A DNA stretch of 13,376 nucleotides from IMG/VR virus record IMGVR_UViG_2923344815_000005, one strand, 5' to 3'. Source of the DNA: a virus. Its lineage: Duplodnaviria; Heunggongvirae; Uroviricota; Caudoviricetes. The notes under the pieces were generated by a model. It did not search any database and was not told where the DNA came from. It saw only the letters and a list, made by a program, of their open reading frames with translations. Shown here one piece after another: positions 10,932-12,678 of the stretch (position 1 is its first letter; the number at the start of each line of letters is the position of its first letter). The position numbers were made by a program, and so were the translations under genes.

Positions 10932-11329
10932 ATGAAACCAACGTCGGTGATCATTATGGATACTCATCCTATCATCAGAATGTCTATTGAAGTTCTGTTG
11001 CAAAAAAACAGTGAATTGCAGATTGTCCTGAAAACGGATGATTACCGCATAACCATCGATTATCTCCGAACCCGTCCTGTTGATTTAATCATTATGGATA
11101 TAGACTTACCCGGAACAGACGGTTTTACCTTCCTGAAAAGGATCAAACAAATCCAGAGCACAGTGAAAGTGTTATTTTTATCATCGAAATCAGAATGCTT
11201 TTATGCTGGCAGAGCGATACAAGCTGGTGCTAACGGTTTTGTCAGTAAATGCAATGATCAGAATGATATTTTTCATGCCGTTCAGATGATCCTCTCCGGA
11301 TACACGTTTTTTCCTAGCGAAACGCTTAA
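10932..11329 (+). pseudogene. fimZ: fimZ-like response regulator, receiver domain only, truncated by IS5
   Basis: MKPTSVIIMDTHPIIRMSIEVLLQKN...DLIIMDIDLPGTDGF matches the FimZ receiver domain as recalled. The ORF runs into IS5 at 11330; the track ORF tail (KEGANKRGN...) is IS5-encoded. No room for a LuxR-type HTH domain remains downstream. Confidence 0.8.
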
Positions 11330-12524
11330 GGAAGGTGCGAATAAGCGGGGAAATACTTCTCGGCTGACTCAGTCATTTCATTTCTTCATGTTTGAGCCGA
11401 TTTTTTCTCCCGTAAATGCCTTGAATCAGCCTATTTAGACCGTTTCTTCGCCATTTAAGGCGTTATCCCCAGTTTTTAGTGAGATCTCTCCCACTGACGT
11501 ATCATTTGGTCCGCCCGAAACAGGTTGGCCAGCGTGAATAACATCGCCAGTTGGTTATCGTTTTTCAGCAACCCCTTGTATCTGGCTTTCACGAAGCCGA
11601 ACTGTCGCTTGATGATGCGAAATGGGTGCTCCACCTTGGCCCGGATGCTGGCTTTCATGTATTCGATGTTGATGGCCGTTTTGTTCTTGCGTGGATGCTG
11701 TTTCAAGGTTCTTACCTTGCCGGGGCGCTCGGCGATCAGCCAGTCCACATCCACCTCGGCCAGCTCCTCGCGCTGTGGCGCCCCTTGGTAGCCGGCATCG
11801 GCTGAGACAAATTGCTCCTCTCCATGCAGCAGATTACCCAGCTGATTGAGGTCATGCTCGTTGGCCGCGGTGGTGACTAGGCTGTGGGTCAGGCCACTCT
11901 TGGCATCGACACCAATGTGGGCCTTCATGCCAAAGTGCCACTGATTGCCTTTCTTGGTCTGATGCATCTCCGGATCGCGTTGCTGCTCTTTGTTCTTGGT
12001 CGAGCTGGGTGCCTCAATGATGGTGGCATCGACCAAGGTGCCTTGAGTCATCATGACGCCTGCTTCGGCCAGCCAGCGATTGATGGTCTTGAACAATTGG
12101 CGGGCCAGTTGATGCTGCTCCAGCAGGTGGCGGAAATTCATGATGGTGGTGCGGTCCGGCAAGGCGCTATCCAGGGATAACCGGGCAAACAGACGCATGG
12201 AGGCGATTTCGTACAGAGCATCTTCCATCGCGCCATCGCTCAGGTTGTACCAATGCTGCATGCAGTGAATGCGTAGCATGGTTTCCAGCGGATAAGGTCG
12301 CCGGCCATTACCAGCCTTGGGGTAAAACGGCTCGATGACTTCCACCATGTTTTGCCATGGCAGAATCTGCTCCATGCGGGACAAGAAAATCTCTTTTCTG
12401 GTCTGACGGCGCTTACTGCTGAATTCACTGTCGGCGAAGGTAAGTTGATGACTCATGATGAACCCTGTTCCATGGCTCCAGATGACAAACATGATCTCAT
12501 ATCAGGGACTTGTTCGCACCTTCC
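11330..12524 (-). mobile_element. IS5, complete (1195 bp)
   Basis: Terminal inverted repeats GGAAGGTGCGAATAAG (11330-11345) and CTTGTTCGCACCTTCC (12509-12524); the 1195-bp length and internal sequence match IS5 as recalled. Confidence 0.95.
11476..12456 (-). CDS. insH: IS5 transposase InsH
   Basis: [40 protein letters not shown]... matches InsH as recalled. Start taken at the MSHQ Met; the track ORF begins 12 codons upstream. Confidence 0.95.
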
Positions 12525-12678
12525 TTAGATGAATACTTCCGCGCATAATATATTCAACACAAATATAGACCTGAAGCGGTAAATTACCAGGCTGAAAATT
12601 CTTTTTATATTGTCAGGTATTTCGGTGATGCTGCCAACTTACTGATTTAGTGTATGATGGTGTTTTTGAGGTGCTCCA

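Follow-up and report, generated by a model that had tools for sequence, protein, structure and literature searches.

The 13,376-nucleotide stretch of DNA analysed here (virus record IMGVR_UViG_2923344815_000005; hereafter the window) ends in the locus argU-fimZ-IS5-99 bp-IS1, in which the regulator gene fimZ is cut short by the insertion sequence (IS) IS5. This structure is very probably the scar of an IS5-mediated deletion, followed by a later and independent insertion of IS1. A single IS stands at the deletion junction, its two flanks are collinear and in the same orientation in intact Escherichia coli loci, and the intervening DNA is missing from the window. The missing DNA amounts to 6,025 bp and extends from within codon 133 of fimZ to a position 150 bp upstream of sfmA. 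As the flanks are native, collinear and separated by this distance, the structure represents a deletion scar with IS5 at the junction, not a simple insertion. Both breakpoints abut the IS5 target motif YTAR, and the IS1 is absent from all genomes that share the scar. The sequence was read from 10700 to 13376 and the junctions were checked by script, which reproduced the coordinates of every feature of this locus described in an initial annotation of the window.

Extent of the deletion

The intact locus of strain 720632 (L001) has the gene order intD, tRNA-Arg, fimZ, sfmF, sfmH, sfmD, sfmC, sfmA, a 470-bp spacer and folD, with the sfm genes on the strand opposite to fimZ. Compared to this locus, the left flank of the window ends at L001 3326, inside fimZ, and the 99-bp segment on the right of IS5 (12525~12623) corresponds to L001 9352~9450 in the sfmA-folD spacer, with 100% identity and in the same orientation. 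In intact loci, this segment lies 150~248 bp upstream of the sfmA start codon and starts 321 bp upstream of folD. The deleted DNA comprises the last 235 nt of fimZ, the five sfm structural genes in full (sfmF-H-D-C-A) and the sfmA-proximal 150 bp of the spacer, which belongs to the promoter region.

The 99-bp segment is native intergenic DNA in its native orientation, with a GC (guanine plus cytosine) content of 32% and no annotated feature in the matching genomes. Matches occur in 4,240 of the 5,426 complete E. coli genomes (with an identity of at least 99% in 884), always once and in unannotated DNA. Five of its six reading frames contain stop codons, and the sixth, on the minus strand, is open only until a stop at the end of the segment. 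The initial annotation was right that the segment soon runs into stops and does not continue a LuxR-type output domain, as no LuxR/GerE domain is encoded here; by contrast, its label of an “orphan” segment was wrong. It had advised a search of the segment and both flanks against E. coli genomes, which traced the right flank to the native neighbouring spacer. For the same reason, an origin of the 99 bp elsewhere in the genome was rejected.

The proposal of an IS5-associated deletion or IS-IS recombination in place of a simple insertion is well supported by the collinear yet widely separated flanks. It would have fallen had the 99 bp aligned to the native fimZ 3' end with a perfect 4-bp duplication, and neither such an alignment nor such a duplication was found. 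The initial annotation also suggested a comparison with an uninterrupted fimZ-argU locus; in the case of 720632, this revealed the deletion of the whole sfmACDHF operon, which had been missed.

The truncated fimZ gene

On the plus strand, fimZ runs without interruption from 10932 to 11329 (398 nt, codons 1~132 plus 2 nt), with 100% identity to annotated fimZ; the left inverted repeat of IS5, GGAAGGTGCGAATAAG, follows immediately at 11330. This agrees with the initial observation of a receiver-domain open reading frame (ORF) that runs into IS5 at this position, the break falling after codon 132. Proteins were assigned by direct match to curated families (Pfam). The receiver domain is complete (Response_reg PF00072, residues 6~118, E=8.5e-28). 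Intact FimZ consists of 210 residues and carries a GerE/LuxR helix-turn-helix at residues 149~204.

Translation of the ORF of the truncated gene (10932~11438, plus strand) gives a product of 168 residues, in which FimZ residues 1~132 are followed by a 36-residue tail from the IS5 left end, up to a stop codon at 11436~11438. Both the Pfam search and the translation indicated that the GerE/LuxR output domain is absent from this product. The exact FimZ-IS5 fusion protein is also present on eight public contigs. At the sequence level, retention of the receiver together with loss of the helix-turn-helix supports the earlier view that the regulator is probably inactivated, and the deletion would be expected to abolish both FimZ-dependent regulation and Sfm fimbriae.

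The IS5 element and its flanks

The IS5 is complete and occupies 11330~12524 on the minus strand (1195 bp). It has the size of ~1.2 kb and the 16-bp terminal inverted repeats (GGAAGGTGCGAAYAAG) by which IS5 is recognized; the right repeat, GGAAGGTGCGAACAAG on the other strand, matches the left one at 15 of 16 positions. A single transposase ORF (11476~12492, minus strand) encodes a DDE-type enzyme (DDE_Tnp_1 PF01609, E=1.9e-35, in addition to DUF772), which the matching genomes annotate as IS5-like element IS5 family transposase. The element is identical to the IS5 at the same place in the genome of F5656C1.

On its left, IS5 is bordered by TTAA (11326~11329), which is native fimZ sequence and fits YTAR, the 4-bp target that IS5 duplicates upon insertion (PMC5009759). 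On its right lies TTAG (12525~12528), a native YTAR site of the sfmA-folD spacer that is also used by ISKpn26 in strain TST3. Both tetranucleotides are native at their respective breakpoints in the intact locus. The mismatch between the two flanks, pointed out in the initial annotation, is therefore real. A simple IS5 insertion is marked by an identical 4-bp YTAR duplication and by flanks that are contiguous in the empty site; here the two tetranucleotides differ, and in intact loci 6,025 bp lie between the flanks.

Each end of the deletion is thus a legitimate IS5 target site. YTAR occurs 12 times in the 633 positions of fimZ and 8 times in the 470 of the spacer, and the chance that both breakpoints abut it in register is about 3e-4. 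Moreover, the very same TTAG is occupied in TST3 (L003 7931~9125) by ISKpn26, an IS5-like element with 95% identity to the IS5 of the window; its orientation is that of the IS5, the TTAG is perfectly duplicated, and sfmA next to it is intact. As both breakpoints abut YTAR and TTAG is a proven cleavage site, the IS5 transposase most likely made both junctions.

How the deletion arose

We propose the following course of events. The ancestral locus would have had the order argU, fimZ, sfmF-H-D-C-A on the opposite strand, the 470-bp spacer and folD. One IS5 would first have inserted normally, either at the TTAA of fimZ or at the TTAG of the spacer, and the same copy would then have acted locally on the other site 6 kb away. 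The second step could have been a direct intramolecular transposition (an adjacent deletion) from the single IS5 at either site, or else a hop over a short distance, in direct orientation, after which the two IS5 copies recombined. The two routes yield an identical product, one IS5 with non-matching flanks, and sequence alone cannot separate them.

Previous findings on this group of elements agree with such a course. Elements of the IS5 family use both replicative and conservative transposition, adjacent deletions are well documented for IS903, and target duplications are usually missing through adjacent deletion or IS-IS recombination (PMC11708052). IS5A hops locally, with 19 events observed within 1 kb against 1.5 expected, and together with IS1A causes 97% of IS-associated deletions (PMC5009759).

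A possible variant, to which we give a rather low probability, starts from two unrelated IS5 copies from distant donors that landed in direct orientation at TTAA and TTAG, after which RecA-dependent recombination deleted the interval and one of the copies. It differs from the course proposed above only in the origin of the second copy, so that its probability is a share of that given to the IS5-mediated deletion as a whole. Its predicted product is identical to the observed one, and the standard explanation for deletions of this type is recombination between IS copies in direct orientation (PMC5009759). In addition, TST3 proves that an IS5-family element can land at the TTAG independently and in the orientation needed, and IS5 has struck fimZ at other sites elsewhere (ZF34, with a CTAA duplication; MLI110; MB06021). 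On the other hand, IS5 is scarce in the genomes that carry the scar (2~7 places per genome), where IS1 is abundant (at least 40 places), so that a local hop is more likely than the independent insertion of two copies within 6 kb, and one primary IS5 with a local event is favoured. Neither of the single insertions nor the two together were found in any genome among the 5,426 complete genomes and the metagenome scans. Far less probable is a deletion by illegitimate recombination or a double-strand break, in which IS5 was captured without cutting of the target, as in the “IS-Del” model of insertion without target-site duplication (Ngan et al. 2024). The missing target duplication would agree with it, and in E. 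coli C a newly arisen 62-kb deletion was found to carry an IS5-family element that lacked a duplication (PMC11708052). However, capture has no reason to respect the motif twice, whereas both breakpoints lie precisely at YTAR (the joint chance given above), the right one being the exact cleavage site of ISKpn26 in TST3.

The two flanks are identical but for one base, and IS elements are a common source of misassembly; it could accordingly be supposed that the window carries a simple IS5 insertion whose duplication mutated from TTAA to TTAG, or an assembly chimera joined through repeats. The likelihood of either is negligible. The right flank shows no similarity to the fimZ 3' end and equals the sfmA-folD spacer at 100%, and the same junctions recur in nine independently assembled complete genomes, as well as in draft and metagenome contigs, and are hence independent of any one assembly. 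Identity to the spacer and recurrence of the junctions refute both suppositions.

Several points weigh against an IS5-mediated deletion followed by an insertion of IS1. A simple IS5 insertion at the fimZ TTAA or at the spacer TTAG was found neither in the 5,426 complete genomes nor by two scans of metagenome contigs for the exact junction patterns; apart from the nine genomes with the scar, the only occupant of the spacer TTAG is ISKpn26, in TST3 and TBE6. A precursor with a simple insertion at one endpoint was found only for parallel IS1 events at this locus (sfmH::IS1, see below). Since no intermediate of the IS5 deletion was found, we infer the order of events and the route. The transposition mechanism of IS5 is also less well characterised than that of IS903, and the right junction of IS1 lies outside the window, so that IS1 could border a further rearrangement. 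Nevertheless, the absence of a sampled intermediate does not exclude an IS-mediated deletion.

The later IS1 insertion

The second element is an IS1 of the IS1B type on the plus strand (12624~13376), which confirms the distance of 99 bp between IS5 and IS1 noted at the outset. It starts at 12624 with the terminal repeat GGTGATGCTGCCAAC and has the repeat GGTGATGCTGCCAACTTACTGAT and the two frames by which IS1 is recognized, insA (12679~12954) and insB' (12873~13376), with the domains Zn_ribbon_InsA, HTH_Tnp_IS1 and DDE_Tnp_IS1. The window holds the first 753 of the 768 bp of the element and ends at the insB stop codon (13376); the last 15 bp of IS1 and the DNA beyond them lie outside. The element reads towards folD and is inserted 222 bp upstream of the folD start codon.

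IS1 was found after the 99 bp in none of the nine complete genomes with the scar and on none of the eight contigs encoding the fusion protein, and the arrangement IS5-99 bp-IS1 is absent from all 5,426 complete E. coli genomes. One of the nine, F5656C1 (L002), equals the window over 1~12623 with a single mismatch (99.99%) at window position 134, where the window has C and F5656C1 has T; in that genome, the spacer continues straight into folD. As IS1 is absent from all nine while F5656C1 is otherwise nearly identical, the IS1 is a later, strain-specific insertion. The order is clear: the IS5 deletion came first and is shared by a subclade, and the IS1 came later and is private to the strain of the window.

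The IS1 of the window is 100% identical to IS1B-family copies elsewhere in the genomes with the scar. A resident IS1B-type element would have inserted 99 bp to the right of IS5, leaving the folD-proximal promoter-like sequence untouched. IS1 generates target duplications of 8~9 bp (PMC5009759). In a simple insertion, the 9 bp AGGTATTTC (12615~12623) would be expected to be duplicated, with the second copy past the window end, and the sequence would continue towards folD as AGGTATTTC-TTAAATTATC / AGGTATTTC-TTAAATTATCTTAATCC.

In the sfmA-folD spacer, a scan for promoters yielded only three weak matches to the consensus, where 1.5 would be expected. The only promoter-like match near folD (L001 9598~9626) lies downstream of both IS positions, which, as weak evidence, fits with folD remaining expressed.

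Distribution of the scar

The fimZ-IS5 and IS5-spacer junctions are both present at 100% identity in the same nine complete genomes among the 5,426, namely F5656C1, 2011EL-1370-2 (O6:H16), FMU073332, LR882973, E66, E70, E143, E272 and E1624. 2011EL-1370-2 is an enterotoxigenic E. coli (ETEC), and the scar is inherited by a subclade of the ETEC clonal group that includes O6:H16 strains. As a sequence the scar is already known: nine RefSeq genomes contain it, with fimZ labelled as a pseudogene and IS5 annotated as well; a published description of the IS5 deletion event at fimZ-sfm was not found in the literature.

A metagenome scaffold of 10,033 bp (L008) has the same fimZ-IS5-spacer scar and differs from the window at four positions over 4,663 bp. 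From about 35 bp past the end of the 99-bp segment, its folD region follows a TST3-like allele, which points to recombination downstream of the scar or to a chimeric metagenome assembly. In the folD upstream region of both TST3 (L003) and L008 there is a 9-bp tandem duplication, CTCAGCGAC-CTCAGCGAC (alignment A1, columns 237~245), by which certain alleles of this region can be told apart from others. Its size is that of an IS1 target duplication, and it could be either a footprint of IS1 excision or the result of simple slippage.

The fimZ-sfm locus in sister and other genomes

An identical IS1B copy is carried by 28 complete genomes, and those members that were examined have the same DLP12-like prophage. 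FORC_031, 254D-1 and 360D-1 have IS1 inside sfmH with both junctions; in FORC_031, where the rest of the locus is intact (L011, about 3899~4666), it is a simple insertion. M9682-C1 (L005 11783~12549) keeps the sfmH IS1 and its left flank, while a deletion of 5,130 bp starts at the right end of IS1 and stops 175 bp upstream of folD; the left IS1 junction of this type, without the right one, occurs in nine further genomes. TW10598 (L010 3244~4011) keeps the sfmH IS1 and its right flank, and has lost 1,523 bp on the left, towards argU, including sfmF and all of fimZ; its junction is common to three further genomes. The sfmH IS1 series is a natural case of an insertion followed by adjacent deletions in both directions.

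Another IS event at the locus within this group is an IS1 in fimZ in E54. Outside the clone, H10407 has an IS1 in sfmD, TST3 has a separate IS1-bounded deletion from fimZ codon 23 into sfmD, and ZF34 (L004 9313~10507) has a simple IS5 insertion at another fimZ site, with CTAA duplicated, and an IS1 elsewhere in the spacer. MLI110 and MB06021 (H58, H59) have independent simple IS5 insertions at further fimZ sites, in the same orientation as in the window, as is also the case in ZF34. The fimZ gene, with a GC content of 36% and 12 YTAR sites, has been struck by IS5 in several unrelated lineages.

The initial annotation had suspected a rearrangement hotspot. This holds for the IS1-rich clone in question, which displays at least three independent IS-associated deletions, sfmH::IS1 and the IS1 of the window, but it does not hold for E. 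coli in general, where, of the 4,278 genomes with any part of the sfm segment, 4,082 retain 80% or more of it at a single position. In at least one branch, sfmH::IS1 had inactivated the operon before the deletions took place, so neutral decay under heavy IS load is the simplest reading. It is unlikely that the repeated IS destruction of fimZ-sfm in this clone was selected, be it as a pathoadaptive loss of Sfm fimbriae or FimZ, or because the FimZ stub, reduced to its receiver, or IS5 and IS1 at 222~321 bp upstream of folD had an effect on regulation.

Neighbouring features of the window

The left landmark of the locus is argU, a tRNA-Arg(UCU) gene on the minus strand (10613~10689) found by ARAGORN and as an Rfam tRNA and annotated as such in the matching genomes. 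It was the sole match of an Rfam scan over the whole window, which gave no known RNA element within the 99 bp. Just upstream of argU lies intD (9434-10597), the integrase gene of a DLP12-like prophage. Positions 1~10597 of the window represent this defective prophage, integrated at argU, which contains tail-fibre fragments, nohD, a Bor/Iss lipoprotein gene (about 4563~4856), lysis genes, quuD, rusA and intD. Its porin gene (6647~7729) is intact and encodes 360 residues, whereas the corresponding gene of K-12, nmpC, is interrupted by IS5.

Comparison with known systems

The structure is a standard IS5-mediated deletion, and the event is ordinary IS-driven gene loss. It explains the fimZ pseudogene annotation and the missing sfm operon in one ETEC subclade of the clonal group that includes O6:H16. 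The states of the locus, namely the IS5 scar, sfmH::IS1, the two IS1 deletions and the extra IS1, could serve as cheap lineage markers for the typing of ETEC strains. Beyond such bookkeeping the importance of the scar is limited; a mild interest lies in the YTAR at both flanks and in the several independent IS-driven deletions within one clone. As a clean natural example of an IS5 without target duplication and with YTAR on both sides, it also bears on the debate over transposase action versus break capture.

IS5A- and IS1A-associated deletions have been described in mutation-accumulation lines of E. coli K-12 (Lee et al. 2016, NAR; PMC5009759). The scar of the window resembles them in having one IS at the junction, no target duplication, a deletion of a few kb and YTAR endpoints. 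Lee et al. ascribed their formation either to a local hop with subsequent recombination or to one aberrant insertion, routes that are indistinguishable from the final product, as here. Unlike those deletions of laboratory K-12, the scar is an allele that occurs in nature, where it has become fixed in an ETEC clonal group.

Ngan et al. (2024, mBio; PMC11708052) likewise described IS copies whose flanks do not match and which border a large deletion, as in the window. For IS150 in the long-term evolution experiment, a two-step course of insertion and then adjacent deletion has been demonstrated (PMC11708052). The element of E. coli C, for which break capture was proposed, belongs to the IS903 subgroup and is 1,051 bp long (PMC11708052), whereas the window has a canonical IS5 of 1,195 bp with YTAR at both ends. 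That both ends respect the motif argues for cleavage by the transposase.

Adjacent deletions are a classical behaviour of IS1. Those of M9682-C1 and TW10598, at the same locus and in the same clone, resemble the scar of the window in that the IS stays, one flank is unchanged and the DNA on the other side is lost. They differ from it in that the element is IS1, not IS5, and in that an intermediate was found (sfmH::IS1 in FORC_031).

Sfm is a Salmonella-like type 1 fimbrial cluster; phylogroup B2 lacks it, Shigella has it in incomplete form, elsewhere it is partly inactivated, and chaperone-usher clusters are often disrupted by insertion elements (PMC3604780; PMC3559732). Compared to these surveys, which report the presence or absence of Sfm, the present analysis defines the exact breakpoints of its loss and the responsible element.

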